Positions 11,201-38,877 of a stretch of DNA of 64,000 bases are shown here, piece after piece. Both the position numbers and the translations under genes were made by a program. The number at the start of each line of letters is the position of its first letter. Position 1 is the stretch's first letter. Origin of the DNA: Candidatus Omnitrophota bacterium (GTDB taxonomy: Bacteria; Omnitrophota; Gorgyraeia; Zapsychrales; JAHFFX01). The stretch lies in NCBI GenBank assembly GCA_023247705.1, contig JAHFFY010000007.1, positions 6,934 through 70,933 on the forward strand. Reading direction: 5' to 3'. Below the pieces are notes generated by a model. That model saw nothing but the letters and a program-made list of their open reading frames with translations. It was not told where the DNA came from and made no database searches.

Positions 11201-14200
11201 CTCTATCTCATCGTTATTCCGCACCATGACCGTGTAGGTGCCGGTTGAATCCGTGCGAAGATATTTATAGCCGTCATACATTTCCCCTGTACTTAAATCG
11301 AGCAAGGCCATATTTCCGGGTTTGAGTTGTATAAATGCCACATCGGCAAATGGATTTATACTCTCAGCGGCAGAGAAGAGATCACTATTAGCGTCATAAG
11401 GGATTTTCTTAACAACATCCCCCTTCTGGAAATCGACAATAACCAGATTATAGTCTATGCCCTGGGTTAGTTGTCGGTACATCAAATACTTGCCGCTTTG
11501 ACTAAAACGGAGTCCATGACTGCGATAAGCCCAGTCGTCACTCAAAGGGGTAATCGCATTGGGAGAAACATTAAGATCGGCTACCTTCGCAAACGAATTC
11601 AACTCATATTTCACCATGGTTTGAAGATCGATCAAGGCCGCGACATTGGCGTCCTTCCTCACGATATAAGCAAACCGCTTATCCGGAGAAATTGCGATAT
11701 CGCCGTCGTTTTTGTCGATAAATAGGGGATTCCAAGATCGCTCTGGATAGGAAATATAAATCTCATCTTGAGTGGTGATTTTATAAAAGCCGTTACTTAA
11801 CAATTCCGCGGACTCAGCATTTTTGAAAACAACTTTACCGGTCCCCGCCTCGATCAATTGATGATTGATTAAAATATATTTCTGCTTGGCGTCCCCAGGG
11901 ACCGCGGTGACGGTGCTCGGTGGGGTGAAAACAAGTCCAGGCGCCGGAGCGATTCCATCCGCTGGGACGCGAACAGGATTTTGCGAATCTTGCGGGTCAA
12001 GATAAATCACATCGCCGGTCGCGGGGTTAAGCAGGACAAAATACTTTCCATCAAAGCTCACAGGTTTATAGCTGCCTTTCTCCAATTGCGATAGCGTTGT
12101 CGGTATATTCGAACTTGAATAATTTGATACATCGCTCAGACTGAGACTTAATCCGAAAGACGTATCCAGCAAATAACGTTTGGAGGAATCCAGAATCCCC
12201 CGCATATCAATATAAAGTTGCGGGAAACTCGTCGTACCCGAATATTCCTGCCGGCTAAACCGCCCTTCCTGATACGAAGCAAATTTTTGCGAAGCTTGAT
12301 CGAAATAAGTAATATCTCCTTTAAATTTATAACTATTTTTCGTCATCGGATCAATCGCAACGGGCTGAGAAAGATCACGGGTGTCAACAACAAGATCGTA
12401 TCGGGGGTGGTGATAGATGTTTTTGGCTACTTGCAAAAGATCCAAATCAGCTAAGTTAACCTCAAAAATGTTTTCAACGGAGACAGGCGAGGTTTGGCCT
12501 AAGTTATTTACGACTCGGACTCCCTTCAATATTCCCTGGGTGTCAACACGCTCATAATAATAATCCGTATTGATCGGTTGGTATTGATAAAGTTGGCCAT
12601 CTTGATCAAAGCGAACCGGGTTGCCTGTTTCCGTCCATATCGTAAAATATTGCTGACCACCAGCATAACTTGTATCAACGATCGAAATTTTTCCACCCAC
12701 CTTGGTGGAATCAATAATTTCAAATCCATGATGAACATAAACTTCCATCTCGCCATTATGCTTGATCATCGCGGTGTAAGTTCCGGTCGAATCGGTGTGC
12801 AGATATTGATAGGCCGTTGTGTTGTTATTAAACAGTTTGGATTCAATGACACTACCGTTTAAAAAATCGCCGGTAAATATGGCCCCATCGGTCAAATCCA
12901 CCAGACTCATCGTTTGATTCTGATGAAAATAAACGAAGGCCACATTGGCGAAGGGATTCATATCATATTCAATATTAACTGAATCCGTGATTCCTTGCGG
13001 TAATTTTCGCACGATCTTGCGCGGATCCGGACTCTCCAGATCCACGATGACAAACGACAACTCATTTGAAGCAGAGATTTCGCGGTACATCAAATATCTT
13101 CCGTCATGGCTAAATCGCAAATCTCGATTTTTGGTGTTCTGAATGTCGGCGGTAAAATTTGGAAGAACGTCCTCCGGGAGAAAACCGGTGATGTCCATAA
13201 AATTATTTTTCAACAAAAATCTGGCGCCGGTCTCGACATTAACGATACTGTCGGTTAAACCGGCGGTTCTTTCCTCGATAAAAGCATATTTCTTATTGGG
13301 CGACGACATAATCTTTCCCTGGGCGTTGGAAGTTGACAACAAAACGACGATGTTGGTGCCTTCCAGATGGACAACTTCCTGTAAAATATTCTGAGAATCC
13401 TCATCGGGGGTTAAGGGTGATTCGGCCTTGGCTTCGGCAGTGTTCTTGATGCTGCGCGTGAGGAGATAACTGTTCCCTCCCAGATGTTCGAACTCTGTGA
13501 CACCGCTTAAAATTTCCGCTGTCGATCCCACCGGTTTCAAAACGCCGTTCACCACCACATGCTTCAGGCTGGCGTTGGTCGGGGCAAAAACAGTTGCCGT
13601 CGGTTGACTTTGCGCGGCCTGAGATTGGCCCGGACGGATCGGATGTTCAGGATCGTCCGGACTCACATAAACGACCTCTTTCGAGGCAGGATTAACAAAA
13701 ACAAAATACTGACCGTCCCAAAAAACATTCGTAAATTCCGTTGAAGAGACACTGGCAAGGATCGTCTCAATAGGAATATCTTTTTCAAAATTATAAAAAA
13801 CGTAATTGGAATTGGAATCCAATACGACAACCAGTCCATTTAACGAACGGGTCGGATCACTTTTACCTTTGGCCACGACCTTCCCTTGTTCAATACGGTC
13901 ACCTGTGTTCAATCTTCTGACGAGATTATTATTCCCATCGATAAATATCAACGATTCACGTCGGAAGAAATGAACAACCTCGTTACCGGACTCAAACGGA
14001 TATTTTATTCCGCTTAAAGCGTCAATCGCCTCCGGATGACTCGGACCAACTAGATTCATAAAATATTCAAGACCGGGCTGTTTAAAGATCAAATTATTCT
14101 GCTCAGGGCTAAAATTCGAAAAATCAAAAGAATTCCAACTCGGGAGCATACCGGGAAGCCCCGGAGAGAATAAAGTAAGTTGATTCCCGTCAAACGTTTC

Positions 14201-17200
14201 TCTGAACTTGTCTTTTAATTTATCCGGATCAACGACACCGGTGACGTCCTGTCCGTCCTGGTCCAAAAAGAGGATTTGTTCCGTTCCCGCTTTATTCACC
14301 CGGACTTCATAATAGGCATCGCCTTCAGACCAAACGGTCGACACCGACTGAATCAAATTGACGTTTAATTGAGAGGCATTGACCATGTTCCCATTGTGAT
14401 GGAAATAAATCACGAATGTACTGGCGATATTTCTAAACGCCGTATAAGTCCCGGAAGAATCGCTGCGAAAAGCCAAGCGCGCTTGATCCGGGATAAACTT
14501 GCCCGCAGCCAGACTAAAAAAATCGATCTCATCATCACCTTTTACTTGAAGAGCAACGATATCGCCAAAATTAGAGAGAGTCAATTCCATTTCTTCTCCT
14601 GGAAGGATAGGATGTTGAATGATAGGCTTTTTCTTTTCTAAATCGATCGCGACAAAGGTCTCCTCATTCGTCTTATTATTTTTTACCACATAGACAAGAT
14701 ACTTACCATCGGCCGTAAATTGGAGGTTGGACATCTTGATCTCCGGAGGAACAACCGGTGCCTGAAACTGCATTTTATACGCCTGAGTTATTACCGCAGG
14801 CACCTCAAAAAAATTTGCTCCTAAGATAAACCGTGAACCATTTTCCAAGTTGAAAATTTCATCAACATCTCCATTGCGTGAGATATAAACGAATTTTTCA
14901 TCCGGTGACATACGCAGCCGCGCTTTGAATTGGTTGGCGTAGTAGACCTCTTCGGGTTTCGATCCTTCTTGCAATCTGATCAATTTATAATAATTGATGT
15001 TTGCGATGTCCTCTATAATTTCGTAATAACCATTCCTCAGAGCCCTTAAGGCCAGAATATTGCCGGCGAACGGGACCTTTTTCCCGGTGGCAATTTCAAA
15101 AATACTCCCCTGGGACAGGATGTGCCGTTGATTGGCATTTTGTGGCACAGCAACAGAACCCATCGCTCTTTTAGATTGAGCGAGCGTCGGCGTACGAACA
15201 ATGGCCGAATTAAATTCATTCACCGCGTCCGAGTCCGGTTGACCGGCGCTTCGTTTAATCTCCTCGATCTCCTCGATCTCCATTTGTTTTGGAACCGCGG
15301 CCGTTTCGTAACCGGTGGTGGTCTCTTCGCCGGTGATGATGTTCAGCAATTCCGTCAGCTTCGCGAATTCTCTCTTTTCGTTGTCATTCAATCCTTCATA
15401 GATTCTCTTGGCGGCCAATTCCTGCAATCTTTTTCCCCACCGCTGGGGAATGGCCGTAAAGCGGTCGGTTTTAATGATCGGGAGCCGATCTTCTTCCGTC
15501 CAGGTATGCCAGTCCGGATGAAACGTTTCAACCCCGCGTAAACTTTCTTGGGTGAACGGAACAACGATCAACGGCAAACGTTTTTGCGCCCCCACGGTGA
15601 CACCTTGAATAATCTCTCCCCCCAGACGTCTTAAACTTGAAACACCTGACCAGTCAAACAAATCCTGATGAAGATAAATGACCTTCTTGCCTTCGGGAAC
15701 AGCCAGCTTCTGAAATTTCCTTTCGTGAGGAAGGATGACTCCGTTATTAGCTTCCACCCGTTCAATGACCGGAGACAAAACTTCCTTGGCCTTCGTTTTG
15801 CTGCTGGCGATCACCCATTCATAATTTGGATTTCCCGTTCCTAATTGCTCCAGCCCAACGATCAAAGTATTGACATAAGCAATTTTTTGGATATCGGTCA
15901 AACTGACGTTGGCAATGATTTTGGTGAAAACATGGTCGATGGCGGATTGAAAAGTTTGCAACGCCCCATCCTTGGAGAAATCGACCTGGATGCGGACATC
16001 CTTGCGTTTCTCGGAGACTTCCATTAACCGGCCGAATTCGACCATCAATCCTCCCTCCACCGTGGAAGAATCAATAATAGACGGCGGAATCTCAACCGCC
16101 AAAATCACCTCTTCGTTTCTGGCAAAAGAAACACGGTGCGGCAAAGACGGGACATGGACCATTTTGACTTTATTGTTCAGTTCTTCGATCTTATCTTCTT
16201 TGGATAACACTTCGGCAAGTTTATCTCCTTCTTTCGGGACAAACATACGGCTGACGGTCTGTTCGTTCATCCCTGTCCCATTATCAATAATGGTCACTGC
16301 ATGAGCACTGAAAGCAATATGAATATCGCCGCGTTCAACAGAAACCGGCAATGGATTTCCGACGATCAATCGTTTATCTTCCACCCCATTGACATGAACA
16401 GGGGCTTCATCTTCAATCTGAGTTGTAATATTCGCAAACCAAACATACGCAAACCGGCGATGAATATCTTCCACCATGGATTCTTGACTATTCTGGAATT
16501 GGGCCTCCCCTTCCGCCTTGGTTCGCAGGATCGGGGTCTTCACTTTAATCTGCACAACCGTCCCCTGGTTCGAGACTGGAGGGAATCCTAAAACCTGTTC
16601 AAACTCTTGCGGGGACTCCAACTGCACGATCTGAATATAGGCTTGCCCATTCGTGTCTTTAAGGATCGTGAGATGATACCAATCCCCTTTTAGGCTGTTA
16701 GCCTGACGGGTCACAATATCAATCCGGTCGCCTCCCGTTGATTCAAGCCAGTCGATAATCTGTTTCACACCCATCCCAAATTGTCCGATCTTAAAATCGC
16801 TTAACCCTAACCGCTCAAGAATGGCATCGAAACTGTTTGAAACAGCCTCGTTGATCCCTTGCGCACGGGGATTAGGATGCTGGCCAACAATGGTGACGTC
16901 TAATCTGGGATCAGTGTAAGTGCTCCGACCATCGGGAAGAGTGTTAATCATATCGATAATCTCTCGCTGGTAATTGCCGCGCACCAAAGCCCTATAGATT
17001 TCCCGATAAGCTTCTTCGGTCGTAAGATTCTGATTAAGATTTAGATTTTTAAGAAGATTCGATAAAATCTGCGGGGCCAGACGGCCTTCTGCCAAACGGG
17101 CCTGCGCGTGCACAAAATGTTCCAGATCGACGCCGCGGAAATTTTGAGAAGGATCAATGTATTCAAATGCGTTGAAACCTTTTCTGATCCGCTCCGAATC

Positions 17201-21808: not shown

Positions 21809-22882
21809 TTAGGGAGATTCCATCGGAACGACATCAATCCTGATCTTCTCGAACCCCCGGATGATCGTTAAGGTCACAGCCTTGCCGATCGGCCACTGGG
21901 CCAGAAATCGATGCAAATCATCGACACTCGCAACGGTTTGTTCGTTAATCCCGATGATCGAATCAAACTCCCTTAAACGCGCCCGGTCCGCCGGGCTTCT
22001 CGGCTCGACCACTTCAATGCAGACGGCTGATTCGTTAGGCAGATTATAGTAGCGCGTGAACCGTCGGTCCAGTTTTGACTGCGCTCCGGCGATCCCTAAA
22101 TATCCCCGCACAACTTTTCCACGGGTCAATATCTGAGAGACCACCCATTGGACCGTATTGACGGGAATCGAAAAGCTTAAGCCCTGCGCCGCAAAGATGA
22201 TCGCGACGTTGATCCCGATCACTTTGCCGCGGGAATCGACCAGCGGCCCGCCGGAATTTCCCGGGTTTAACGGTGCCGTATGTTGAATGATATTTTCAAT
22301 CAACCGTCCATCCGGACTGCGCAAATGACGCCCAACGGCGCTGATGACCCCCGTTGAAACCGTCGACTGAAATCCCAACGGATTTCCGATCGCAATGGCC
22401 AATTGTCCGACCTTAAGCAACGACGAGTCACCTAAAGCCGCAAACGGTAATCGCGCGGCATTAATGCGGACAATTGCCAGATCCGTGGCCGGATCTTCTC
22501 CGATCAGCTGGGCGTCGTAATTGTCATGATTATCCAGCGTGACCGTCAGCCGTGTGGCGTTATGAACGACGTGACTGTTGGTCAGGATATATCCGTCCGG
22601 CGTAAAAAGAACTCCGGATCCAGCACCGCCTTCCTGCATCCCGTTTTTCTGAATCCGCTAGCCGATATTGATGCTGACCACCGATGGTCCAACCGTCTCG
22701 ACCACTTTGACCACCGCCCTCGAATAGGCGTCCAGCAAATCCGTGTCCGATTCGATCCGCGGATTCTGTGTTGGGCCTGAAAGAAGATCCTTGTGTTTGA
22801 CTTCTTCTTTCCCGGCTTCCAATCTTTCTTGAACACCCTCAACATACAAAAACTTACGATCTTCCCAATTGACAGCTTCCAT
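21809..22882 (-). pseudogene. HtrA/DegP-family (S1C) serine protease with PDZ domain, interrupted by a single in-frame TAG
   Basis: N-terminal piece (…VVKVVETVGPSVVSINIG) and C-terminal piece (MQEGGAGSGVLF…HVV…GNSGGPL…PDZ) share one reading frame separated only by TAG at 22658-22660 plus 6 sense codons; RBS AAGGAGG before ATG at 22882. Confidence 0.65.
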
Positions 22883-22898
22883 CTTCCTTGCCTCCTTG

Positions 22899-22916
22899 AA
22901 TACCAACTAGTTGGTA
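22899..22916. promoter_or_regulatory. perfect 18-bp palindrome ATACCAACTAGTTGGTAT, putative TetR operator, 17 bp upstream of the htrA-like start
   Basis: self-complementary over its full 18 bp; shares ATACC-N8-GGTAT architecture with the site upstream of tetR. Confidence 0.5.
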
Positions 22917-25070: not shown

Positions 25071-26690
25071 CTAAAATTTTTTTTCCAAATCTTTAATCAT
25101 ATCTGCAATCTCTTGATGCACCCCGGTCAAATCGATCACACTCAACCCAAGTTGCAACTGTTCTTGCGGAAACGTCAGATTGTCGCTGATCAATAATCGG
25201 TAAGACACGGGATGAGACACATGCTTAGGTTGCAACATAAAATCGACGACGAACAAATCTCCTTCCATATGCCCGGTCAGGTTAATTATTTTTATCCACC
25301 GCTCCCAAGCGATTTCTTTGATGGCTAAGGTCGTGACCAGATAAGCCGTCCCGGGAATATCTAAATTAAACAGACCCAGTTCATCATATCGAGAGTGAAG
25401 CATCGGATTTTTGTTGAGGATAAAATGAATGCGCCGGCTTTTTTCCATGGGGAATAAAGAAAGCTGTTTCTTAACATCATTGAATTCCATAGCACAAGGC
25501 AGTACCCGGTATAACAAAATCGTCCGGGCTGCTTGATACGCGCCGTAACCAGAACCGCAGATCAAAATCATGGTCAAAAACAACCCCCGCCAGCGTTTCG
25601 GGATAAACAAATGCCATTCATAAACCGCCCAGATCAGAAGAAAAACAATAACGGTCGTCACCCCGACGCAACACCGGTACCAGGGGGCGTTGCCTTGTGC
25701 AGCCAGATTAGGCAAGAAACTCAAAATCAGGAAACCCGGCAGCAAAACCACGCCCAGCAATAAATCCCGGATAACACTTCGTTGATCAGGTTCGTGATGA
25801 CATCGTTTGGAAATCCGGAGGCAAAATGCGGAAAGAATGACGGTTGCAACCAGGAAACTCACATTCTGTATTGGAAATATATTCCACAGATTCAAAGAAC
25901 TGAAAACAACCTCATCTTTGAACCAGCTGAATTTCTGAAAATAATTCCAAGTCATCTGTGTAGGATCATAAAGTTTCCAGCTTTCGTCATAATGAAAAGA
26001 CGGTTTTACGCACTTGAGAATCACGGCGTAAATCATGATGACGGTCATCCCAACGGCAAATGTATTGAAAAGATGTTTCTTTTGTTCAGACCGATCGCCC
26101 TGATAACAGTTGAACAAAAAAATTCCCGCATTCACCGCCCAGAAAAACATGGCCCCAGGCGGATAAAACATCAAAGCAATCATCAACAAGAATGCGGATT
26201 GAAAAGTGTGTCGATCGTTTAAGTCTTTACTTCGAGTCAAAATCACGGTGGCCAAAAAGGAATAGAAGACGGATGCGAAATGAAAGATAATTCCCGATGA
26301 AGCCATCCAGACCTGAAAAGGCGGCTGGGTGAAAACGATGAGGACCGCGCAAAACCCCTGCGCCGGATTGACGGATTTCTGTTTGAGCCACCCGATGGTC
26401 ATCGTCCCCATGAGACTTAACAGGACCAGATTCAAGAATCGTAATATGTGAAGATCCACGATCCTGTTCAAAACATTCTGCAGACTCATCCCGACGATCG
26501 CTCCAATAAACCGGCCGCTGAAGAAGTCGTGAATATAACACGGAATGGGTAACCCCTTGGCAAATAAAACAACCTCATCGTGAAAAGCAAAATCAAACGC
26601 GAAAATCGGCCAATACGCAAAATAGAAAATGGTCAGAAAACTTAGAAAGATAAAAAGTTGTCCCGGAATTTTCTTTTTTTCGTAAGACAT
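25071..26690 (-). CDS. polytopic membrane protein, GT-C-type glycosyltransferase-like (PMT/ArnT-like DE motif)
   Basis: 539 aa with more than 10 predicted TM segments; AFHDEV motif in the first loop; TAG stop; 7-nt gap to the upstream gene. Confidence 0.4.
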   Translation of the reverse strand: MSYEKKKIPGQLFIFLSFLTIFYFAYWPIFAFDFAFHDEVVLFAKGLPIPCYIHDFFSGRFIGAIVGMSLQNVLNRIVDLHILRFLNLVLLSLMGTMTIGWLKQKSVNPAQGFCAVLIVFTQPPFQVWMASSGIIFHFASVFYSFLATVILTRSKDLNDRHTFQSAFLLMIALMFYPPGAMFFWAVNAGIFLFNCYQGDRSEQKKHLFNTFAVGMTVIMIYAVILKCVKPSFHYDESWKLYDPTQMTWNYFQKFSWFKDEVVFSSLNLWNIFPIQNVSFLVATVILSAFCLRISKRCHHEPDQRSVIRDLLLGVVLLPGFLILSFLPNLAAQGNAPWYRCCVGVTTVIVFLLIWAVYEWHLFIPKRWRGLFLTMILICGSGYGAYQAARTILLYRVLPCAMEFNDVKKQLSLFPMEKSRRIHFILNKNPMLHSRYDELGLFNLDIPGTAYLVTTLAIKEIAWERWIKIINLTGHMEGDLFVVDFMLQPKHVSHPVSYRLLISDNLTFPQEQLQLGLSVIDLTGVHQEIADMIKDLEKKF

Positions 26691-26697
26691 AACACAA

Positions 26698-27474
26698 TTA
26701 TGAATGATTTATTTTTTGCCGCGTCTGGATCTGACGCAGGGCGTTCACATCCAGATGAGCTTCATCGGCCTGGGCGATGACTCTTTGCAATCTCGCGAGG
26801 GCTGTCCGCCCCATACATTTGTGATTCCAATCGCCTTCAAAGGCTTTCCGCATGCCCTGGATCAAGGGCGCGCGGTCCAATTGTCTTCCAATCAATTTGA
26901 ATTGGACATCCAACACATCACTGGCAACGCCCCGGGCAAACGGTTCGTGTTTAGACCAAAGTTCGCCGACGGTCCCGCCGACTTCTAATCCGGCGATATT
27001 GATCGTCAGAATATAAAGATTTTTTAAAACTAGCTCGAAAAGAAGTTCCTCTGTGCTTTTAAGAACACGGGTTGAGATCTGAAAATTTTTTAAGACCGTT
27101 TCAATCAACGGCGCATGAGGGCCAAAGACAGGAGACGGAATGATGACCTTGTAATCTTGCGGCCATTTTTTTTCGAACCATATCGAAATCACCGTCGGGT
27201 GCGCAAGGCCATGCCTTTCCCAATCGCAGGGAAGAAGTTCGTTTTGCACCAAGACAAGCCGGTCATGCCAAACCCGCGGGAGCGCGGATAAACACGCACT
27301 GAAATCTTTTTCCGCGACCGAGATAACGATCACCTCCGGATCAATCGCCTTTTCCAGCTTCGATAAATCCATACCGCGCAAAACCGGATAAACGGGATGT
27401 CCGGCTTTAAGAAACCCTCTGGCAAAAACACCACCGATCTCTCCCATCCCTACAATGCAGACTTGTCTTTTCAT
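26698..27474 (-). CDS. NAD(P)-binding oxidoreductase, ketopantoate-reductase (PanE/ApbA)-like
   Basis: 258 aa; N-terminal Rossmann motif VCIVGMGEIGGVFARGFLKAGHPV; 15-nt gap to the RND gene. Confidence 0.45.
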   Translation of the reverse strand: MKRQVCIVGMGEIGGVFARGFLKAGHPVYPVLRGMDLSKLEKAIDPEVIVISVAEKDFSACLSALPRVWHDRLVLVQNELLPCDWERHGLAHPTVISIWFEKKWPQDYKVIIPSPVFGPHAPLIETVLKNFQISTRVLKSTEELLFELVLKNLYILTINIAGLEVGGTVGELWSKHEPFARGVASDVLDVQFKLIGRQLDRAPLIQGMRKAFEGDWNHKCMGRTALARLQRVIAQADEAHLDVNALRQIQTRQKINHS

Positions 27475-27489
27475 ACTATTCTCTCTAGC

Positions 27490-30400
27490 TTACTGCGCCC
27501 AGCTTCCTCCCAACGCTTTAATTAACTGGACGGTCGATACGAGACTCCGATTAAGGATCTGAATGGATTGAAGTTCCGCCTGCAGCCGTGATCGTTCGGC
27601 GTCGGCCACCTCGAGAAAATTGACCAATCCCTGACTGTAACGGGATTTGGCCATACCGGCCGATTGTTGCGCGGCATCCACAACCACTTTTTGAATATCC
27701 CATTGCTCCCGTCCCAGCCGAATACGCACCAGCGCATCTTCCACTTCACCGAACGCGACGAGAACACGCTTGCGGTAAGTCGCGACTGCTTTATCGTACT
27801 GGCTCTTGGCCGCCTGCAGGTTCGCTTTATTTTTGCCGCCGTTGAACACAGGCAAAAACACATCCGGTCCCACTGACCACATACGACTCTCCCAATTAAA
27901 CAACGAACTCAACTCCATACTTTCAAACCCCGTTTTTCCCGTCAATGAAATCTTTGGGAAAAAAGCAGCTTGCGCGACACCGATCTGGGCGTTGGCCGCG
28001 GCCATCAGACGTTCCGCTTCGGCGATATCCGGACGGCGTTCCAATAAATTTGAGGTTAATCCGGGAGGAATGATCGGCGGGATGAGATCAAGAGGTTTTG
28101 TTTCGATTTTAAATTCGGCGGCGGACTTTCCGCATAACACGGCCAAGGTGTTTTCAATTTCTGCCCGTTGCCGGGCCACATCGATCTTGGCGGCCTGCAC
28201 TCCGGCTAATTCCGTCTGGGCCCGCGAGACATCCAGTTCGCTGACCAAACCGGCTTTAAAACGGTTTTCGACAACCGATAACGCATCGGTCCGTAAAAGC
28301 ATGCTCTTCTCTAATATCTGCACCTCGGATTCCAATTCCCTTAACATAAAATAATTTCTGGCCACATCCGCGGTCAGGGTTAACGAAACAGTCTGAAAAG
28401 CGGCCTCGCTCGCTTGCGCTTCGGCCAAAGCGGCATCGGAAGACGACTTCACCCGTCCCCAAAGATCCACTTCATAGCTAAGGTCCAACGGAACTTCATA
28501 AGAATTACTTGGGTTCTTCGGGGAAAAATCTCCAAACGTGTTTTGTGATGTCCGTTCCCGGGTGTATTGTGCCGATAAGTTAGCTTCCGGATAAAAGGCC
28601 GATTGATTCAGTTTAGCGACCGCACGGGCCTGATTCAAACTGGCCAGAGCGATCTTTAAATCCTGATTGAAATGCATCGCTTCTTTTTCCAAATCATTTA
28701 AAAGCGGATCATTGAAAACCATCCACCATTCCCCTTGGGCAACATGATCACGCGGGCTGGCCTCTTTCCACGCCGGGTCGGTGGTTTTCCAATCGGCGGG
28801 GATACTGGCCTCGGGAATATGATAACGCGGGGCGCGCATACAACCGCTCAAGAAAACAATCAGGATCATCGCCGCGCCAGCGGTCTTGATCACAGATTGA
28901 TTGAAGTTGGAAAGATTCGTGGGCGGCGCCATTTTATTTTTCCTGGGACTCAAAAGAACATAAACCACCGGAATAACAAAAAGCGTCAAAAAAGTACTGG
29001 TCAACATACCTCCGACGGCAGCGACTCCTAACGGCCGGCGACTTTCTCCACCGGCACCGAAACCGATCGCGATCGGAAGAATCCCAGCGATCGTCGCGGT
29101 GGCGGTCATGAGAATCGGTCGCAATCTGATCAAACCGGCCGCCAGCATCGCCTCGCGCGCCGTTTTTCCCTTGCGGATTTGCTGATTGGCAAAATCGACG
29201 AGTAGGATTCCATTCTTCGTAACAAGTCCGATCAAAAGCAAAAACCCGATCTGGCTGAAAAGGTTAATCCCCATCGCCGGAATTCTCGGAATTTTTCCCG
29301 ACAGCCAATGTCCCGGCGGGATCGTCATTCCCCAATGATCGATCAGACTCACACACCAAAGACCACCGAAGGCGCCAAAGGCCGCGAGAGGAACGGTCAG
29401 CATCACGGTCAAAGGATGGACGAGACTCTCAAACTGAGAGGCCAAAACCATGTAAATCACCAGAACCGCCAGAATCAATACAATGAAAATATCCCTGCCG
29501 GATTCGATCAAGTCCCGGGCCTCCCCGGTCCATTCATAACGGAAATCCGCCGGTAAATCCGTTTTAAGCAGGTTCTGAACTTTCTGGACGGCCACCCCCA
29601 ACGGCACGCCGACCGGAGTCCCTTCGATAATCGCGGAACGAAAACGATTAAAATGCTGAATAGCACTCGGTCCCGCTCCCGTCTCATAAGATACAACATT
29701 ATTTAATTGGATCAACTCTCCATGAACGTTTCGCACATAAAGACGTTCCAGATCCGACGGAGTCAAACGGGATTCCCGCTTAAGCTGGACAATGACATCA
29801 TATTCCTTTCCAGAAAGATTCAGTTTACTCAGATCCAATCCTCCGAAAAGAATCTGCAGCGTGTGAGAAATATCTTCGACAGAAACGCCTAAGGCCGCCG
29901 CGCGATTACGGTCGATCAATATTCTTAACTCCGGTTTATTCAGCTCGAAGGTCGAACGGACATTCGCCAGATATCCTGATGTGCGCAGTTTGCCGCTCAA
30001 TTCATCCGCATAGCGGCTGATCGCATTTAAATCGGTTCCCTGGAGAACAAGCTGAAAAGGCTGGGTGAATCCGCCACCGATCGATTTGGGAATGATCGGG
30101 ATGACGATCGCGCCTTCGATATTTTGAAAAAATTTTGAACCGAACCCAAACGGACCACCGACGATGTCGCGCACATGCCGTTTGCGATCTTCTTTCAAAC
30201 GGATAAATGAAAGCCCCTCGGCCGCCCGGCCCGGTCCGCTGCGGGCTAAAGCGACCGCGGAGAAATATCCTTCCACCTCCGGTGTTTGAGCAATAATCTC
30301 CTCTGCTTTCTTCACCATGCGGTCGGTATATTCGCTGGTGGATCCTTCCGGAGCGACGACAATACAAAACAGACGCCCTTTATCTTCTTCAGGCATGAAT

Positions 30401-32052
30401 TCACGATTTAACCGGGAATAAAAAAAAATCGTCAACCCCAAAACACAAAGACTCAAAAACATGATGACAAACGGATGGTTAAGCGACCACTGCAATCTTC
30501 GTTCATACCAGCGATGCAATGCGTTCAATCCGCGATCAAAGTAATAGACCAAACCTCTCTTCTGTTCATCGTGCGCAACACCGCGCAGAATCCTGGAGGC
30601 CACCATCGGAGCCAGCGACAACGCGACAAACGCCGAGATCAACACCGAGAAAGAGATCGCCACGGCGAATTCGATAAACAACCGTCCGGTCACACTGGTC
30701 TGAAACGCCATCGGAAAAAAAACCGCGACCAGCGCAACCGTAGTCGCAATGACGGCAAAACCGATTTCTTTCATCCCCTGAATCGCCGCCGGCATGGCGG
30801 ACATTCCCTCTTCGATATGCCTGAAAATATTTTCCAACACGATAATGGCGTCATCGACCACCAAACCAATCGCCAGGACAAACGCCAGCATCGTGACAAT
30901 ATTAATAGAGTAACCGAATAAATATAGAACACCGAATGTCGCGATAATTGAGATGGGAATCGTAACTGCTGGGATAAATGTTGACCGGATATTGTGCAAA
31001 AAAATAAAAATTGTCACAACGACGAGAAGAAAAGCAATCGCCAGCGTCCCCCAAACCTCTTTAATGGATTTCTCCACGTAAACGGATTCATCGTAAGGAA
31101 CCGAAGTATTAATGCCGACCGGCAATGTGGGTTTCAGACGTTCCAGTTCTTTCTTGATTCCATGGGCAACATCGATTGTGTTCGCCTTGGATTGTTTGAT
31201 GACCCCGATCCCGACGCAGGGTTTGGAATTATAGCGTGCAATCGAGCGTTCATCCTCAACTCCGACAGCCGCATAACCGACATCGCGCAACCGCACGAAG
31301 GCGGACACCTCTTGTTTAATGACGAGATCATTGTATTCCTCGGGTGTTTTCAATTCACCCAAAGTCTCAATCGAAAGTTCCCGCTGCCAGCTTTCGACCC
31401 GGCCGCTGGGTAATTCCACGTTTTGATTTTTCAAAGCGCTTTCCACATCCATAACCGTGATACCGCGCGCCGCCATTTTTTCCGAATCAAGCCACAACCG
31501 GATGGCAAAACGCTTGGCGCCGCCGAAGATAATGGAACTTACCCCCGGCACGGTTTGCAGTCGGTCCTTCAAGATATTCTCACCGATCGTGGTCAATTCC
31601 AGTGTTGAGAAACGATCGCTGTACAAAGCGATCCATAAGACCGCTTGTGCATCGGCATCCTGTTTCGCAACGATCGGTTCATCGATATTTTCCGGCAACC
31701 TTCCCCGGACACGGGCGACACGGTCGCGGACATCCTGGGCCGCGAGCTCGATACCGCGGGAAAGATCAAACTCCAATGTGATCGTGCTGACCTGTTCCCG
31801 ACTCTCGCTCGTCATGGTTTTGATGCCTTCAATGGAATTCAAGGCCTCCTCGAGGGGTTCAGTCACCTGTGTTTCAATAACTTTAGCGCTGGCACCGGTA
31901 TAAATCGTGGAGACGTTGACAATCGGAGGATCGACGTCGGGTAATTCCCGGACAGGAAGTCGGGACAAACCGACCAGGCCAAACAAAATCAGCCCCAGAC
32001 TCATCATGGTGGCAAGGACAGGACGATTAATGCTAATTTCAGATAAGCGCAT
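27490..32052 (-). CDS. RND efflux permease (AcrB-like, aa 1-1040) read in frame into an outer-membrane factor (NodT/OprM-like lipoprotein, aa 1041-1520)
   Basis: 1520-aa continuous ORF; N-terminal 12-TM RND permease; internal MAPPTNLSNF...AAMILIVFLSGC lipobox signal peptide followed by a 480-aa OMF-like sequence; junction ...SPRKNK-M... sits in an A5 run. Confidence 0.75.
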   Translation of the reverse strand: MRLSEISINRPVLATMMSLGLILFGLVGLSRLPVRELPDVDPPIVNVSTIYTGASAKVIETQVTEPLEEALNSIEGIKTMTSESREQVSTITLEFDLSRGIELAAQDVRDRVARVRGRLPENIDEPIVAKQDADAQAVLWIALYSDRFSTLELTTIGENILKDRLQTVPGVSSIIFGGAKRFAIRLWLDSEKMAARGITVMDVESALKNQNVELPSGRVESWQRELSIETLGELKTPEEYNDLVIKQEVSAFVRLRDVGYAAVGVEDERSIARYNSKPCVGIGVIKQSKANTIDVAHGIKKELERLKPTLPVGINTSVPYDESVYVEKSIKEVWGTLAIAFLLVVVTIFIFLHNIRSTFIPAVTIPISIIATFGVLYLFGYSINIVTMLAFVLAIGLVVDDAIIVLENIFRHIEEGMSAMPAAIQGMKEIGFAVIATTVALVAVFFPMAFQTSVTGRLFIEFAVAISFSVLISAFVALSLAPMVASRILRGVAHDEQKRGLVYYFDRGLNALHRWYERRLQWSLNHPFVIMFLSLCVLGLTIFFYSRLNREFMPEEDKGRLFCIVVAPEGSTSEYTDRMVKKAEEIIAQTPEVEGYFSAVALARSGPGRAAEGLSFIRLKEDRKRHVRDIVGGPFGFGSKFFQNIEGAIVIPIIPKSIGGGFTQPFQLVLQGTDLNAISRYADELSGKLRTSGYLANVRSTFELNKPELRILIDRNRAAALGVSVEDISHTLQILFGGLDLSKLNLSGKEYDVIVQLKRESRLTPSDLERLYVRNVHGELIQLNNVVSYETGAGPSAIQHFNRFRSAIIEGTPVGVPLGVAVQKVQNLLKTDLPADFRYEWTGEARDLIESGRDIFIVLILAVLVIYMVLASQFESLVHPLTVMLTVPLAAFGAFGGLWCVSLIDHWGMTIPPGHWLSGKIPRIPAMGINLFSQIGFLLLIGLVTKNGILLVDFANQQIRKGKTAREAMLAAGLIRLRPILMTATATIAGILPIAIGFGAGGESRRPLGVAAVGGMLTSTFLTLFVIPVVYVLLSPRKNKMAPPTNLSNFNQSVIKTAGAAMILIVFLSGCMRAPRYHIPEASIPADWKTTDPAWKEASPRDHVAQGEWWMVFNDPLLNDLEKEAMHFNQDLKIALASLNQARAVAKLNQSAFYPEANLSAQYTRERTSQNTFGDFSPKNPSNSYEVPLDLSYEVDLWGRVKSSSDAALAEAQASEAAFQTVSLTLTADVARNYFMLRELESEVQILEKSMLLRTDALSVVENRFKAGLVSELDVSRAQTELAGVQAAKIDVARQRAEIENTLAVLCGKSAAEFKIETKPLDLIPPIIPPGLTSNLLERRPDIAEAERLMAAANAQIGVAQAAFFPKISLTGKTGFESMELSSLFNWESRMWSVGPDVFLPVFNGGKNKANLQAAKSQYDKAVATYRKRVLVAFGEVEDALVRIRLGREQWDIQKVVVDAAQQSAGMAKSRYSQGLVNFLEVADAERSRLQAELQSIQILNRSLVSTVQLIKALGGSWAQ

Positions 32053-32112: not shown

Positions 32113-33216
32113 TCAGTGATTCTTCTTTTTTTCTTCCGACGGCCCTTCAAACTTAACGGACACCTTGGCGCCCGGAGCTAACTTCTGAAAACCTTCCACC
32201 ACAATCACGTCATTTTCCCAAATACCATCTAACACTTCCACCCAACCCGGGACACGGGTTCCTACTTTAATTTCTTTCATCTGAACACTTTGATCTTCCT
32301 GAACAACAAAAACAAAAACCGCATCGCCTTTCAAAATCAAAGCGGTCTCCGGGATCACAATCGCGTTCTCGTGCTGATTGATCGTCAGCTGAATATTGGC
32401 AAACATACCCGATCTCAATTTTCCCTCGGGGTTAACGATTTTAGCTTTAATCAAAGCTGTCCGTGTCGGTTCGTCAATTTGCGGATCGATAAAATAAACC
32501 TCACCGGTAAATGTCTCATCGGGATATGCCGCGATTTTTGTTTCAACCATTTGACCCTCTTTGATCTCCCTGAGATAACGCTCGGGCACGCGAACATCCA
32601 CTTTGATCGGATCCTGATTAATAATAAAAGTAAGCGCAGCGCCTTTAACGATAAACTGGCCGACGCTGACCAAGCGTTGTCCCATGATTCCGTCAAAAGG
32701 AGCCGAGATCGTTGTGTCGCGCAATTCTGCTTTATTGAGTTCGACGGCGGCTTGATTGACTTTAAGCGTCGCGGCGGACTGTTCAAATTCCTGCTGCGAG
32801 ACAGCACCCGTTGAAATCAACGATTGATAGCGTTCGTTTGTGGTTTCGGCTAATTTTAAATTCGCCTCGGCCTGATCCAGCGCAGCGCTGAGTTTCCGGG
32901 AATCAATCTGAATCAACACATCGTCTTTCTTGACATTTTGCCCTTCCTGAAATTTGATATCTTCGATTTGTCCATCAATTTCGCTGCGGATCTCGACGGT
33001 TTCATTCGCTTTTAAATCTCCTACTAATGTAATTTTCTCAGTGATTGTCTGTTTTTTCGCTTTCGAACCAACGATATTCACCCGCATCTCCATCGGCATC
33101 GCATTAGTTTTACCCTTGGCTTCGCAGCCCAAGAAAAAAAATCCCATAATCAAAATCATCAAACAACTAAGCCATCCGGCTTTTAAATCTAATTGACTAT
33201 GCATATCATATTCCAT
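32113..33216 (-). CDS. RND efflux periplasmic adaptor (membrane fusion protein, AcrA/HlyD family)
   Basis: 367 aa; N-terminal membrane anchor, coiled-coil region, beta-barrel and MP domains. Confidence 0.8.
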   Translation of the reverse strand: MEYDMHSQLDLKAGWLSCLMILIMGFFFLGCEAKGKTNAMPMEMRVNIVGSKAKKQTITEKITLVGDLKANETVEIRSEIDGQIEDIKFQEGQNVKKDDVLIQIDSRKLSAALDQAEANLKLAETTNERYQSLISTGAVSQQEFEQSAATLKVNQAAVELNKAELRDTTISAPFDGIMGQRLVSVGQFIVKGAALTFIINQDPIKVDVRVPERYLREIKEGQMVETKIAAYPDETFTGEVYFIDPQIDEPTRTALIKAKIVNPEGKLRSGMFANIQLTINQHENAIVIPETALILKGDAVFVFVVQEDQSVQMKEIKVGTRVPGWVEVLDGIWENDVIVVEGFQKLAPGAKVSVKFEGPSEEKKKNH

Positions 33217-33301: not shown

Positions 33302-33775
33302 TCAACTTAAATTCCGCGCAACCTTTCTTAAAACATTTTTACAAATCGTCATGTCCTTGATGCGAATCCCCTGCTGAGCTTCTTTGAGCATCTGCTGGAC
33401 CACACGCAACAATTCCTGCTGCAGTTCCTTCCCTTTATTCGTTAGATAAATTAATTTCAGGCGGCCATCTTGGCTATTGGGAATACGCACCACTAAATTG
33501 CGTTTTTCTAAACCATCAATCAAACGGGTGATACTTGTTTTATCCTTACAGGTAACGCCCGCGAGATCCTTTTGGCTCTGACCGTTTTTCTGCCAAAGGT
33601 TCATTAAAACCGCCCACTGCTCGCAGGTAACATTATGGCCCGCCTTTTCAAAATTGTGATTGAGCCGGTTGGCCATGGCACGGCCGGCTCGGCCGACGAT
33701 GTAGCCGAGCGATTCTTCGAGATGATAAAAAATGCTTTTTTTCATAGGCATATTAGTTGCATATACAACTTTCAA
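33302..33775 (-). CDS. MarR-family transcriptional regulator
   Basis: 157 aa winged-helix region (…VTCKDKTSITRLIDGLEKRNLVVRIPNSQDGRLKLIYLTNKGKEL); first gene of the efflux operon. Confidence 0.85.
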   Translation of the reverse strand: MKVVYATNMPMKKSIFYHLEESLGYIVGRAGRAMANRLNHNFEKAGHNVTCEQWAVLMNLWQKNGQSQKDLAGVTCKDKTSITRLIDGLEKRNLVVRIPNSQDGRLKLIYLTNKGKELQQELLRVVQQMLKEAQQGIRIKDMTICKNVLRKVARNLS

Positions 33776-34764: not shown

Positions 34765-36582
34765 TTAAGGAAAACCTGATCCCTTCGGAATCTTGCAGGC
34801 ATCGCTCCAATTATAATCTGTTTCCAGGAGAAAAACAGTCTGGATAAACGCCAGATGCGAATAACCTTGGGGAAAATTCCCCGTCAACCGCTGTGTTGCC
34901 ATCTCAATATGCTCAGAGAATAATCCCAACGGATTGGCGCATTGAAGAATATTCTCAAACATGCCCCTGGCTTTTTCTTCTTCCCCGATCAAATACAGGG
35001 CATTGATCATCCAGAACGTGCAAACGATAAACGCATTCTCCGGAAAACCTAAACTATCATGGGCTATATAACGCATCGCAAAATTATTGCGAACCAAATC
35101 TTCATATATTCGCAGCACCGTGCTAATGATACGAGGATCCTTCTTATCCAGAAATCCGTAGTGGAGCATCAATAAATTAGCGGCATCCATCTCCTGGGAT
35201 CCATAATACATCGTGAAGGCTTGCTTTTTCTCATTCCACCCGTAAGTTAGAATATCCTGTTTGATCTCATGAGCCATCTTCAAACAATTCTGAGCGTACT
35301 TGGTTTTACCGACGTATTGCGCGATTTTAGCGGCCCTGTCCATGGCCACCCAGTTCATCATCTTGGAATGGACATAATGCTGGACAGCCCCTCGCTGTTC
35401 CCAAATCCCGCTGTCCGCATCGCGCCAGACCATCATCACCTTGTTCACTAAAGAACGCACAACCGCCCAAACCTCTTCATCAAATGAAATGGAAGGCCGC
35501 CGGTTTAAAATAAAATTTGTATAAATCGTCTCAATCAGTTCCCCGTAGAGATCGTTCTGTTTTTGGCGGTACGCATCATTTCCAATCCGTACCGGACGGG
35601 AATGTTCATATCCATTTAAATGATCCAAGATCTTTTCCGTTAATTCTTTCTCTCCATTAATCCCGTACATCACAGCGATATTTTCATGTTTAAGCAGCAT
35701 ACGATTTAAAATAAAATTCAGATAGCGTTCGGCCAATCGTTCATGCCCTAAACGGGAATAAAGATCAATAATCATGGAGGCATCCCGCACCCAACAGTAA
35801 CGGTAATCCCAATTCCGATCCTTGCCGATAATCTCCGGCAGGGATGTCGTCGGCGCAGCGATAACCGCACCCGTTCTCTGATAGGCCAATAATTTTAAGG
35901 TAATCGTGGAACGGATGACCATTTCCTGATAAGACTCAGGAAGTTTAGTCCGATAAACCCAGTCCAACCAATAACTTTTAGTTTTCTCGTACTCGACATA
36001 GATCTTATAAAGATTAATGGGCTCTAACTTCTCATGATAGGAAAGCAAAAAAAATGAAGACTCGCTGAGTTCGATGGGCTCCCCTTTAACTATTTTCTGG
36101 TGATCGAGATTGCTGTAAAGATAGAAACTATTATATTCACCTTTTTGTGAGGTGATTTTAATATAATCTTTTTCGAAATGGAACTGGGCGTTGCTTAACG
36201 CGTAATTAGGCCGGGGAATCAATTCGATGATGATTTGGGGCCGTCCTGAAATGACATGAATATCCCGATGGATTTCCGAAGGACAATGCGTTTCTCCCTG
36301 TGTTGTAAGAAAACGGGGCATATAATCATTGACCTCAAAGACGCCATGCCTGGTCTCGAAAATTGTTTTTATAATGGCGGTGTGAAAAATATAATGCTGT
36401 CTGATCGCAATGACATCGACACTGGAAATCTTAAAATAACCGCCCTTCTCATCGTCTAAAATGCGGGCGAACAAAGAAGGAGAATCAAAAAATGGCAGGC
36501 ATAACCAATCGATGCTGCAATCGGAAGAGATCAACGCAGAGCTTGTACAGTTCCCGATGATTCCGTAATGGTAGTTTTTCAT
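34765..36582 (-). CDS. glycoside hydrolase family 15 (glucoamylase/trehalase-like)
   Basis: 605 aa with an (alpha/alpha)6-barrel GH15-like C-terminus; start overlaps the otsB stop (ATGA). Confidence 0.75.
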   Translation of the reverse strand: MKNYHYGIIGNCTSSALISSDCSIDWLCLPFFDSPSLFARILDDEKGGYFKISSVDVIAIRQHYIFHTAIIKTIFETRHGVFEVNDYMPRFLTTQGETHCPSEIHRDIHVISGRPQIIIELIPRPNYALSNAQFHFEKDYIKITSQKGEYNSFYLYSNLDHQKIVKGEPIELSESSFFLLSYHEKLEPINLYKIYVEYEKTKSYWLDWVYRTKLPESYQEMVIRSTITLKLLAYQRTGAVIAAPTTSLPEIIGKDRNWDYRYCWVRDASMIIDLYSRLGHERLAERYLNFILNRMLLKHENIAVMYGINGEKELTEKILDHLNGYEHSRPVRIGNDAYRQKQNDLYGELIETIYTNFILNRRPSISFDEEVWAVVRSLVNKVMMVWRDADSGIWEQRGAVQHYVHSKMMNWVAMDRAAKIAQYVGKTKYAQNCLKMAHEIKQDILTYGWNEKKQAFTMYYGSQEMDAANLLMLHYGFLDKKDPRIISTVLRIYEDLVRNNFAMRYIAHDSLGFPENAFIVCTFWMINALYLIGEEEKARGMFENILQCANPLGLFSEHIEMATQRLTGNFPQGYSHLAFIQTVFLLETDYNWSDACKIPKGSGFP

Positions 36583-37388
36583 TCCCAGGACTCAACAGTT
36601 TTTAATTCTAGAATTTCTTCTAACAGCAGACTTACTTCTTTGATATCCTTTAAGAAATATTTAGCCTGAGATACTTCGGAATGCCCGACACAGATGGTAA
36701 TGCCTTCATCCTTTAACGCCTGAAACGCATCTTCATCCGTTTGATCATCACCGATATAAACAGGCAAAGTCGCTTTATTATCCAGAGTGAATCTCTGTCC
36801 ATTCAAAAACCACTTAACGATGGATCCTTTATCCCACTTAACCGGTGGGCTAATCTCAAAAACTTTCTTGCCGGTTTGAATACTGATTTCTTTCTTAACT
36901 AAATAAGGTTTGCAGATATGGTGAAAAATCGTATTGAATAGACCCAGATTATTTTCCGGCACCATACGATAATGAACACCGATCGACCATCCTTTGTCTT
37001 CAATGATTACGCCATGAATTTTAGTTAACTCTCTATCCAAGTCGTTTTTTATCCCTTGGAACAATCGTGTAATTCTGTCTTTATCCGGATTTTCAAAATG
37101 TATCTGGGGACTATCAATTTCAAACCCGTGATTACCGATATAAACTATATCGGCGATTCCGACTCTTTTTTTTATATCTGCGACCGCCCTGCCGCTGACA
37201 ATAATCAGTCGGCAAAACGGAAGACCTGACATTTCTTGCAGCAGCACTTTATTCTCTGCGGAAAGGAATGATTGATCAGGGATCTCCACAATCGGCGTCA
37301 ATGTTCCATCATAATCTAGAAATAAAAAAAGATATTTATCCCGCCAGGATTCTTTCAATGCGTTCCAATGATCAATAAAATAGTCCAT
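36579..37388 (-). CDS. otsB: trehalose-6-phosphate phosphatase (HAD-IIB)
   Basis: motif FLFLDYDGTLTPIV; probable start at the internal Met MDYFIDHW (37388), 10 nt after the otsA stop; the ORF track extends to 37469. Confidence 0.8.
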   Translation of the reverse strand: MDYFIDHWNALKESWRDKYLFLFLDYDGTLTPIVEIPDQSFLSAENKVLLQEMSGLPFCRLIIVSGRAVADIKKRVGIADIVYIGNHGFEIDSPQIHFENPDKDRITRLFQGIKNDLDRELTKIHGVIIEDKGWSIGVHYRMVPENNLGLFNTIFHHICKPYLVKKEISIQTGKKVFEISPPVKWDKGSIVKWFLNGQRFTLDNKATLPVYIGDDQTDEDAFQALKDEGITICVGHSEVSQAKYFLKDIKEVSLLLEEILELKTVESWE

Positions 37389-37398
37389 ACCTATGCCC

Positions 37399-38877
37399 CT
37401 AATCCCGAAACTCGAATTCCAATAATTCAGATATGATTTTGCCAGCCCAATGATAAATATTATTTTCATGTATGATTTTACGCATTTTGATCATTCGTTT
37501 ATTCCGATCATCTTCGGTTAAATTAAGCGCCTGAAAAATTCCTTCGCTGAATTCATCGCAATCATAAGGATTGATTAAGACCGCGTCCGTCAGTTCCCGC
37601 GCCGCGCCGGTAAACTGACTTAGAATAAGCATTCCCTTATGGTCTGACCGGCTGGAGATATATTCCTTGGCGACCAAATTCATCCCGTCATGGAGCGAAC
37701 TTACGATCGCCGCCGTGCTGATACGGTAAAGCGCTAATAATTCTATCAAAGAAAACTGCCGACGGACAAAAACAACCGGTTTCCAATGAGAGACCGCATA
37801 CTTCCAATTAATCTCCTCAACCAAAGCGTTGATCTCATCATTCAGTTCTTTATATTTTTTGATATGCAACCGAGTGATCACTCCTATTTGCAGGAATACA
37901 ACCTTGCCGTATAACTCTGAATGTTTTGCGAAAAGACGATCGATCGCGCGCAACTTATCCGGCAATCCCTTCGTATAATCAATTCGGTCCAATCCTACCA
38001 AAACTTGACGCTCTGAAAGTTCAAATTCCTGAATCAACGCATCCGCTTTCTCTTGGACCGCTACCGAATTGACTACTTCATTAATCCCGGTGAAATCCAC
38101 ACTAATCGGATAAGGTCGAATCAAAGTTTCGTGATCATTTTTAATGATCGAAACGCGCTCACGATCGATTTTACTCTCGATCTCCCGATCAATGGTTTCC
38201 AAAAAATTATTACAATGTTGCCGAATGTGAAAACCTAACAGATCATTGCTCAAAAGCCCCTCTAAAATTTCTTTTTTTTGCGGGCAAATTCTAAAGGCCT
38301 CGTGGCACGGCCAAGGGATATGCCAGAAATGAGCGGTAATGATTTGTCGGGGGGCTTTTTGTTTTAGATATTTCGGGAGGAGACAAAAATGATAATCCTG
38401 GATCCACACGAATGCCTTTCGATCTCCGATTTCATCGATGATCGCTTGGGCAAATTTTTCGTTCACGCGTTTATAACATTCCCAATCCTCCGACCTGAAA
38501 ATTGGTCTTTCGAAGGCCATATGGCATAACGGCCACAGCACTTCATTTGCATATCCATAATAATATCCTTGTTCCTCTTCTTTCGTCAGCCAAACGCGTT
38601 TGAGCGTGTAAGACGGTTGATCCGGAGGAACACGCACTTTTCCTTTTGAATCCGTAACATCGCGATCGGCATCGCCATGACCATAGGCGACCCATAAACC
38701 ATCGCAGCTTTGCATCACCGGGTCTAAGGCGCTGGTCACACCACCGATGCCCCGGATCCATTCGATGTTCCCTTTTTTCCGGACGTGCACATACGGCTCG
38801 CGGTTGGAAACAACGATAAAAAGATAGTCCTTCATTTTATCTTTAATCAAATTTTGTAAATTTTCTTTTTGCCACAT
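37399..38877 (-). CDS. otsA: alpha,alpha-trehalose-phosphate synthase (GT20)
   Basis: 492 aa; GT20 motifs VWIQDYHFCLLP and TAHFWHIPWP; TAG stop. Confidence 0.85.
   Translation of the reverse strand: MWQKENLQNLIKDKMKDYLFIVVSNREPYVHVRKKGNIEWIRGIGGVTSALDPVMQSCDGLWVAYGHGDADRDVTDSKGKVRVPPDQPSYTLKRVWLTKEEEQGYYYGYANEVLWPLCHMAFERPIFRSEDWECYKRVNEKFAQAIIDEIGDRKAFVWIQDYHFCLLPKYLKQKAPRQIITAHFWHIPWPCHEAFRICPQKKEILEGLLSNDLLGFHIRQHCNNFLETIDREIESKIDRERVSIIKNDHETLIRPYPISVDFTGINEVVNSVAVQEKADALIQEFELSERQVLVGLDRIDYTKGLPDKLRAIDRLFAKHSELYGKVVFLQIGVITRLHIKKYKELNDEINALVEEINWKYAVSHWKPVVFVRRQFSLIELLALYRISTAAIVSSLHDGMNLVAKEYISSRSDHKGMLILSQFTGAARELTDAVLINPYDCDEFSEGIFQALNLTEDDRNKRMIKMRKIIHENNIYHWAGKIISELLEFEFRD

Follow-up and report, generated by a model that had tools for sequence, protein, structure and literature searches.

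Tripartite efflux pumps of the MexAB-OprM and AcrAB-TolC type are among the closest described systems to the locus analysed here, an operon of a Candidatus Omnitrophota bacterium in which the permease and the outer-membrane channel are encoded in a single open reading frame (ORF). The locus lies within a 64,000-nucleotide stretch of contig JAHFFY010000007.1 (positions 6,934 to 70,933, forward strand; assembly GCA_023247705.1), referred to below as the window; coordinates are those of the window, and the genes and elements described all lie on its minus strand. As in the MexAB-OprM and AcrAB-TolC operons, four functions are found in the order MarR-family regulator, periplasmic adaptor, resistance–nodulation–division (RND) permease and outer-membrane factor (OMF), and the permease has the same Asp-Asp/Lys/Arg proton relay. 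In contrast to those systems, RND and OMF share one frame, and the signal of the OMF is internal, placed behind 12 helices. We propose, with a probability of roughly 0.8, that the gene encodes a polyprotein: RND and OMF would be made as one chain, within a MarR–adaptor–pump operon, and split at the internal lipoprotein signal.

Natural fusions in efflux systems have been described, among them tandem-fused adaptors such as DSY0927, SecDF, and the nucleotide-binding domain–permease fusion of MacB (PMC4446572; PMC8277102). The present gene resembles these in joining components of one machine. However, the parts of DSY0927, SecDF and MacB share one compartment, whereas the proteins fused here are bound for two different membranes and would therefore need to be separated by proteolysis.

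The fused gene occupies 27490–32052, stop codon included, as one ORF of 1520 codons. It encodes, in this order, a complete RND permease, a Lys/Arg-rich linker, a hydrophobic stretch of 14 residues, the lipobox LSGC and a full-length channel of the NodT/OprM type. Pfam recognizes both domains in the 1520-residue product (ACR_tran, E = 2e-288; OEP, E = 6.8e-52), and a 100% identical protein, P0001, is present in the databases. The initial annotation of this DNA, which had described an RND permease and an OMF as one in-frame fusion of 1520 residues, is borne out by these assignments. Across the junction the ORF reads ...VIPVVYVLLSPRKNK-MAPPTNLSNFNQSVIKTAGAAMILIVFLSGC-MRAPRYHIPEA..., with PRKNK-MAPPTNLSNFNQSVIK-TAGAAMILIVFLSG-C between the two domains. 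At the DNA level the junction is agt ccc AGG AAA AAT AAA ATG gcg, with a run of five A (A5) at 28941–28937 (a T-run at 28937–28941 on the plus strand) and the junction ATG at 28932–28930; the initial annotation had read the same AGG AAA AAT AAA ATG and placed the T-run at the same positions.

The permease domain, of the HAE1 type, comprises residues 1–1035 (28948–32052). It matches PF00873 over its full length with 959.8 bits (cutoff 28), and the NCBIfam models for RND permeases span residues 1–1040. Narrower NCBIfam models fall below their cutoffs (NF033617, RND_permease_2, 995 against 1250 bits; TIGR00915, 778 against 940), which makes the protein a member of the RND family outside any named subfamily; its score of 995 under the 1250 cutoff places it in a divergent HAE1-like branch. 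Relatives in the PDB include MexB, AcrB, MdtB and CmeB, with E values of about 1e-136 to 1e-162. A Kyte–Doolittle scan, a crude measure and not a topology predictor, gives 12 hydrophobic segments within residues 11–1037, with periplasmic loops at 35–328 and 549–847. The proton-relay residues D400/D401 (GLVVDD), K946 (TKNGIL) and R976/R978 (IRLRPILMT), which we take to be the equivalents of D407/D408, K940 and R971 of AcrB, are invariant in an alignment of 50 sequences. The domain ends with the motif IPVVYVLLS of the twelfth transmembrane helix (TM12). Unfused RND relatives continue into hydrophilic tails and have no 13th hydrophobic segment.

The predicted mature OMF comprises residues 1071–1520 (27493–28842). 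TIGR01845 (outer_NodT) matches residues 1064–1516 with 421.6 bits (cutoff 210), covering model positions 3–459 of 460, and PF02321 (OEP) matches in two stretches, one for each repeat. Full-length matches in the PDB include the OprJ-like structure 9j3d (E = 1.2e-68) and OprM (1wp1, E = 4.9e-67). Cys1071 aligns to residue 1 of mature OprM (1wp1), OprJ (5azs), CusC (3pik) and CmeC (4mt4); in the OprM structures 1WP1 and 3D5K this residue sits at the inner leaflet of the outer membrane. Taken singly, the RND and NodT/OprM parts are unremarkable representatives of their families. The OMF is not a stand-alone product with an N-terminal signal; its signal peptide is found at residues 1041–1071 of the 1520-residue ORF.

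Fusion of the two domains is not confined to the window. A protein search covered about 5.8 billion proteins, and the best 120 matches were considered. About 83 of these have at least 1400 residues and contain both domains: the identical protein and 82 others, with 50–74% identity and ~100% coverage. The named lipobox-type fused proteins all come from metagenome-assembled genomes of Candidatus Omnitrophica/Omnitrophota, while the fused homologues as a set derive from NCBI, JGI, ENA and Logan assemblies. Identical fused proteins recur on several contigs (P0052 on 31, P0100 on 12 and P0018 on 4). When the RND part alone is compared, the 14 closest relatives are fused, with 71–81% identity, and the best unfused relative stands at 70.7%. 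In a neighbour-joining tree the window protein falls inside a clade made solely of fused proteins. The window gene has the features of a conserved fused RND–OMF family (about 1480–1560 residues, with an internal lipobox and placed after MarR and adaptor genes) and nests among its members.

Four fused loci were read as DNA (L001, L082, L083 and L084), and all four show the order MarR, adaptor, fused gene. Their junction DNA is unrelated to that of the window and in frame in every case; L083 and L084 contain no A-run. The closest sampled locus, L082, reads AAG AAA AAT in register with AGG AAA AAT of the window, showing that the A5 run is common to independent assemblies.

These loci bear on the suggestion that the fusion is a sequencing artefact, which the initial annotation had judged at least as likely as a real fusion. 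In that case the true genome would carry A6 at 28937–28941, with an acrB-like gene ending in ...PRKK-TAA and an overlapping oprM-like gene from the ATG. A single extra A would indeed produce AGG AAA AAA TAA A ATG, that is, RKK-stop and then a start codon, and the initial annotation was right that this rebuilds a two-gene layout. Moreover, AGGA lies 8 nt before the ATG, and a Met at the junction position is peculiar to the window sequence. An unfused arrangement is found in the orthologous Omnitrophica operon L086 (GCA_020632515.1), which has the same MarR–adaptor–RND–OMF order and an RND protein (P0078) of 70% identity. There, a stop follows ...KRKRKNK, an ending near the ...PRKNK of the window, and after a 17-nt spacer the OMF lies in another frame, with a 17-residue N-terminal lipoprotein signal, MKSILMSFMVFLFLTGC.

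The artefact explanation is countered by the 14 closest relatives, fused without exception, and by L082, in which an identical A5 run occupies the equivalent frame. In addition, MAPPTNLSNFNQSVIK of the window aligns with the linkers of fused relatives, including a conserved V/I-K pair, and not with a short stand-alone signal peptide. The fused gene itself stays in frame through homopolymers of nine and eight nucleotides (a 9-mer and an 8-mer); long open ORFs of the assembly contain 31 homopolymers of at least 7 nt and 69 of 6 nt, and the assembly is without sign of homopolymer trouble. The initial annotation had further mentioned two other frame breaks at homopolymers in the window. These were not reproduced in the breaks inspected, the window not having been searched systematically for frameshifts: an HtrA-like gene contains an in-frame TAG (22660–22658) that is not at a homopolymer, and the overlap of otsA and otsB is only an extension of the upstream ORF. 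We therefore regard the artefact as very unlikely. A comparison with related genomes had been recommended in the initial annotation; the related loci L001, L082, L083 and L084 show the fused, in-frame layout, and the sequence comparison as a whole strongly supports a genuine, evolutionarily maintained fusion.

Programmed frameshifting at the A-run was also considered and rejected. The A5 run is short, no canonical X XXY YYZ heptamer is in frame, and the run is absent at most homologous junctions.

Between the two domains, the alignment of homologues delimits a predicted cytoplasmic linker with the n-region (residues 1036–1056, PRKNKMAPPTNLSNFNQSVIK; 28885–28947), which holds the A5 run, AGGA (28941–28944) and the ATG of M1041. 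The h-region and lipobox follow (residues 1057–1071; 28840–28884), assigned from lipobox statistics and hydropathy, in which the h-region forms a 13th hydrophobic segment. The window junction, ...SVIK-TAGAAMILIVF-LSG-C, thus combines a positive n-region, a hydrophobic core and a lipobox. Cys1071 (codon 28840–28842) is the predicted site of lipidation and of cleavage by LspA. A lipobox scan extended to the other ORFs of the window, with a pattern too strict to be informative on whether the organism makes lipoproteins, recovered only the internal site of the fused gene, and neither lgt nor lspA was seen within the 64 kb.

Junction statistics were collected from 69–72 lipobox-type fused proteins. 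Their linkers are rich in Lys and Arg (median of five K+R and zero D+E), and both the linker sequence and the distance from the end of TM12 to the Cys (22–41 residues) vary. Of 69 lipoboxes tallied, all contain the Cys, 65 have Gly at −1 and 39 have Leu at −3, and no lipobox-type fused homologue has Asp at +2. The Cys is likewise found in all 72 lipobox-type sequences that were examined. The uncharged run before the Cys has a median length of 14 residues, compared with 13 in 105 signal peptides of stand-alone OMFs from the representative search; judged by these lengths, the h-region is that of a signal peptide and not of a membrane anchor. Immediately ahead of the hydrophobic core, the fused clade of the window keeps a V/I-K pair (EPVK, QAVK, SVIK). 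The codon of its Val (28891–28893) is GTG in the window and in L082 and GTT in L001. This pair may be what is left of an original Met-Lys start of the OMF, converted after the fusion.

From these features we infer the topology, lipidation and cleavage of the polyprotein. The C-terminus of RND permeases is cytoplasmic, as established for AcrB. The 12 RND helices would accordingly insert in the inner membrane with the C-terminus in the cytoplasm, and the Lys/Arg-rich linker would remain inside the cell. The former signal peptide of the OMF would act as a 13th helix, N-in/C-out, with Sec-dependent export of the OMF domain of roughly 450 residues into the periplasm. The lipobox would thereby come to lie on the periplasmic side of the membrane, the site of action of Lgt and LspA; Lgt would transfer diacylglycerol onto Cys1071, and LspA would cut before it to yield a normal lipidated (triacylated or diacylated) OMF, sorted to the outer membrane. 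The initial annotation had raised LspA-type release at the lipobox as the consequence of a real fusion, and a real fusion with this predicted step is strongly supported by comparison: fused layout, internal signal peptide and lipobox Cys are all kept in more than 70 diverged homologues, and the MarR–adaptor–fusion operon is found again in independent assemblies.

After cleavage, the signal peptide would stay on the RND protein as an extra C-terminal helix. By analogy with the small protein AcrZ and its effect on AcrB, the retained helix might modulate the pump. The pump would then assemble as usual, with three RND, six adaptor and three OMF subunits. The benefit of the fusion would be equimolar (1:1) synthesis of the two trimeric partners, while the adaptor, needed at 2:1, is encoded separately.

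Cleavage seems necessary because Cys1071 corresponds to the first mature residue of the OprM family, located at the outer membrane, leaving no spacer that could cross a periplasm of roughly 15–20 nm. This argues against an uncleaved product, either one chain across both membranes or an OMF domain tethered to the inner membrane. A precedent for such permanent attachment is found in ABC importers with substrate-binding domains fused to the permease, and cleavage of the window protein is a prediction. However, the signal-peptide length of the h-region, together with the ubiquitous Cys and the Gly at −1, is the signature of an Lgt/LspA substrate rather than of an anchor, and fused groups that lack the Cys carry AxA-type signal peptidase I sites in its place. 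A permanently joined chain is accordingly an extremely improbable outcome.

In another reading the fusion is real, but translation also starts inside the gene, at M1041 (AGGA-N8-ATG) or at the GTG codon of V1054; such internal initiation would supply most of the channel or add to it, with the polyprotein a minor or non-productive species. The AGGA resembles a Shine–Dalgarno sequence and is suitably spaced from the ATG, and a product initiated at GTG 28893 would open with a textbook signal, MIKTAGAAMILIVFLSGC. A linker Met is found in 12 of 69 fused homologues, in some just before the h-region, e.g. KKK-MKTAAVSVLLIAVMSLTGC in P0055. These Met residues are scattered in position and unconserved, and neither a start codon nor a Shine–Dalgarno sequence in the linker is conserved family-wide: the conserved Val is encoded by GTT in L001, and no candidate exists in L083 or L084. 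In the window, a Shine–Dalgarno core precedes only 10 of 35 ORFs, and chance alone places such a core before 6.5% of internal in-frame ATGs. No promoter-like site is observed near the junction, and internal initiation leaves the joined frames in more than 80 sequences unexplained. As the main source of the channel it is thus unlikely, although it may add to the polyprotein route. A separate internal promoter for the OMF was rejected, since no promoter-like site was found near 28,900–29,100 in a scan whose yield was overall below chance expectation.

Several points weigh against the polyprotein. The neighbour-joining tree is a simple distance tree in which unfused relatives are under-sampled, because fused matches score higher in the search. 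No contig of the same species was found by an exact-pattern metagenome contig scan that allowed an A-run of variable length, and a protein-based scan for a same-species assembly returned only distant relatives of 33–39% identity. Met exactly at the junction, AGGA 8 nt upstream and a distance of one A from a stop/start are combined in the window only, which is suggestive of a recent or reversible junction. Finally, we know of no protein for which LspA cleavage has been demonstrated at a lipobox that lies behind 12 helices and over 1000 residues away from the N-terminus.

Fusions of this kind recur outside the lipobox-type group. In a second group (P0082, P0093, P0098, P0100 and others), an orthologous RND permease (64–68% identity) is fused to a TolC-type OMF, which is about 20% identical to that of the window and whose best model, TIGR01844, gives 176 bits, under the cutoff of 225. 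The Cys is absent from these proteins; instead, they contain sites resembling those of signal peptidase I (VRA-ED, AQA-EE, ALA-QE). An exhaustive search of 1.84 billion cluster representatives yielded four further fused cases. P0185 (1504 residues) belongs to another RND subfamily, passing NF000282, and has the junction ...LTLSGC; P0133 has the lipobox LNAC, and P0134 and P0144 have Ala-rich sites similar to those of signal peptidase I. A Bacteroidales locus, L070, has an open frame of 1569 codons with ...GGFAVSC before the OMF part. This locus is the only true single-frame fusion from a scan of genome contigs with the fused-family alignment, which was saturated by generic RND motifs and returned no Omnitrophota loci; most of its '1-1518' matches are adjacent genes in different frames.

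A cleavable junction signal is present in every fused case examined. Outside the clade of the window, fused and unfused proteins are interspersed in the neighbour-joining tree, so several events of fusion or fission are likely. With somewhat better than even confidence, we favour the wider view that these proteins form a conserved set of two-membrane polyproteins of multiple origin, split by Lgt/LspA or, in the sister group, by signal peptidase I, with the signal kept as a permanent 13th helix of the RND protein. We also observe that P0139, a 'stand-alone' OMF representative of 484 residues, begins with ILLGRFKTKFSKP..., matching the RND tail of the fused P0072 (YILLGRFKSKLSPP). Some apparent stand-alone OMFs are thus contig-end fragments of fused genes, and the fused family is under-counted.

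The adaptor (membrane fusion protein) gene, at 32113–33216, lies immediately upstream of the fused gene in the same orientation. Its product matches TIGR01730 (RND_mfp) with 284 bits (cutoff 94.9), and its position is the same in L001, L082, L083, L084 and L086. The MarR-family regulator gene (33302–33775; Pfam MarR, E = 8.7e-14) heads the operon, and in each of the five homologous loci read the adaptor gene likewise follows a MarR gene. Translation of the regulator in the window probably begins downstream of the TTG listed as its start. By the MarR gene, a promoter-like site (33804–33776) has 10 of 12 matches, in a scanned region that is overall not above chance.

The fused gene is directly followed, on its downstream side, by two ORFs (25071–27474), the first beginning 15 nt past its stop codon; both may belong to the same transcript as the fused gene. 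One, of 258 residues, has only a weak N-terminal match to an NAD(P)-binding domain; the other, of 539 residues, has no family match. Counterparts of the two are not conserved at the homologous loci.

Further along the window, the HtrA/DegP-like serine protease gene (Trypsin_2 and PDZ; 21809–22906) is broken by its in-frame TAG with no frameshift. The gene could be a pseudogene, or the TAG could reflect a base error or stop-codon read-through. A trehalose cluster at 34765–38877 contains a GT20 trehalose-6-phosphate synthase (37399–38877), a trehalose phosphatase (36579–37469) and a GH15/trehalase-like hydrolase (34765–36582). The 71-nt overlap of the synthase and phosphatase genes is an extension of the upstream ORF, because the phosphatase domain begins at residue 50. 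A cobalamin riboswitch (RF00174; 3321–3627) scores 44.6 bits against a gathering score of 31.5 and lies upstream of an ORF of 680 residues (1168–3210). The window also contains a giant ORF of 4553 residues (5264–18925); proteins of very large size are a recognised peculiarity of some Omnitrophota.

We found no published description of a natural RND–OMF fusion in the full-text literature searched or in reviews of tripartite pumps and outer-membrane proteins, nor any account there of an internal lipobox in a polytopic protein being processed by LspA, which is not proof of absence in either case. The fused proteins are already in public databases, labelled as either 'efflux transporter outer membrane subunit' or 'RND permease', and with such one-sided labels half of the function is lost in annotation. 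Moreover, these genes would be wrongly 'corrected' by any pipeline that takes a long fused ORF for a frameshift error. If our interpretation is right, this would be the first characterised natural RND–OMF fusion and the first case of LspA processing at an internal, C-terminal lipobox in a polytopic protein. In tripartite pumps, which are put together from individually made components, the matching of pump to channel and the recruitment of the OMF are debated, and a natural fusion, 1:1 and co-localised, would provide an experimental handle on assembly. It would likewise test the action of Lgt and LspA on a lipobox distant from the N-terminus. The recurrence of the fusion in several lineages, with a cleavable signal always kept, suggests that fused and split states are easily interconverted.

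The internal signal has the features of the lipoprotein precursors processed by Lgt and LspA, namely a positive n-region, a core of ~14 residues, the sequence L-S-G-C and no Asp at +2. Unlike in those precursors, it is not N-terminal, and after cleavage it would stay on the RND protein instead of being degraded. As a mechanism, the nearest parallel known to us is FbcH of Bradyrhizobium japonicum, a cytochrome b–c1 polyprotein reported to be split at an internal signal peptide into subunits present at 1:1. In both, one chain runs from a polytopic inner-membrane protein through a signal peptide into a second member of the same complex that faces the periplasm. The two differ in the protease and the destination: FbcH is reportedly processed by signal peptidase I into two products that both remain in the inner membrane, whereas the window protein is predicted to be processed by Lgt and LspA, with the released product bound for the outer membrane. 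In this respect the TolC-type fused group, comprising P0100 and its relatives, is the closer analogue of FbcH.

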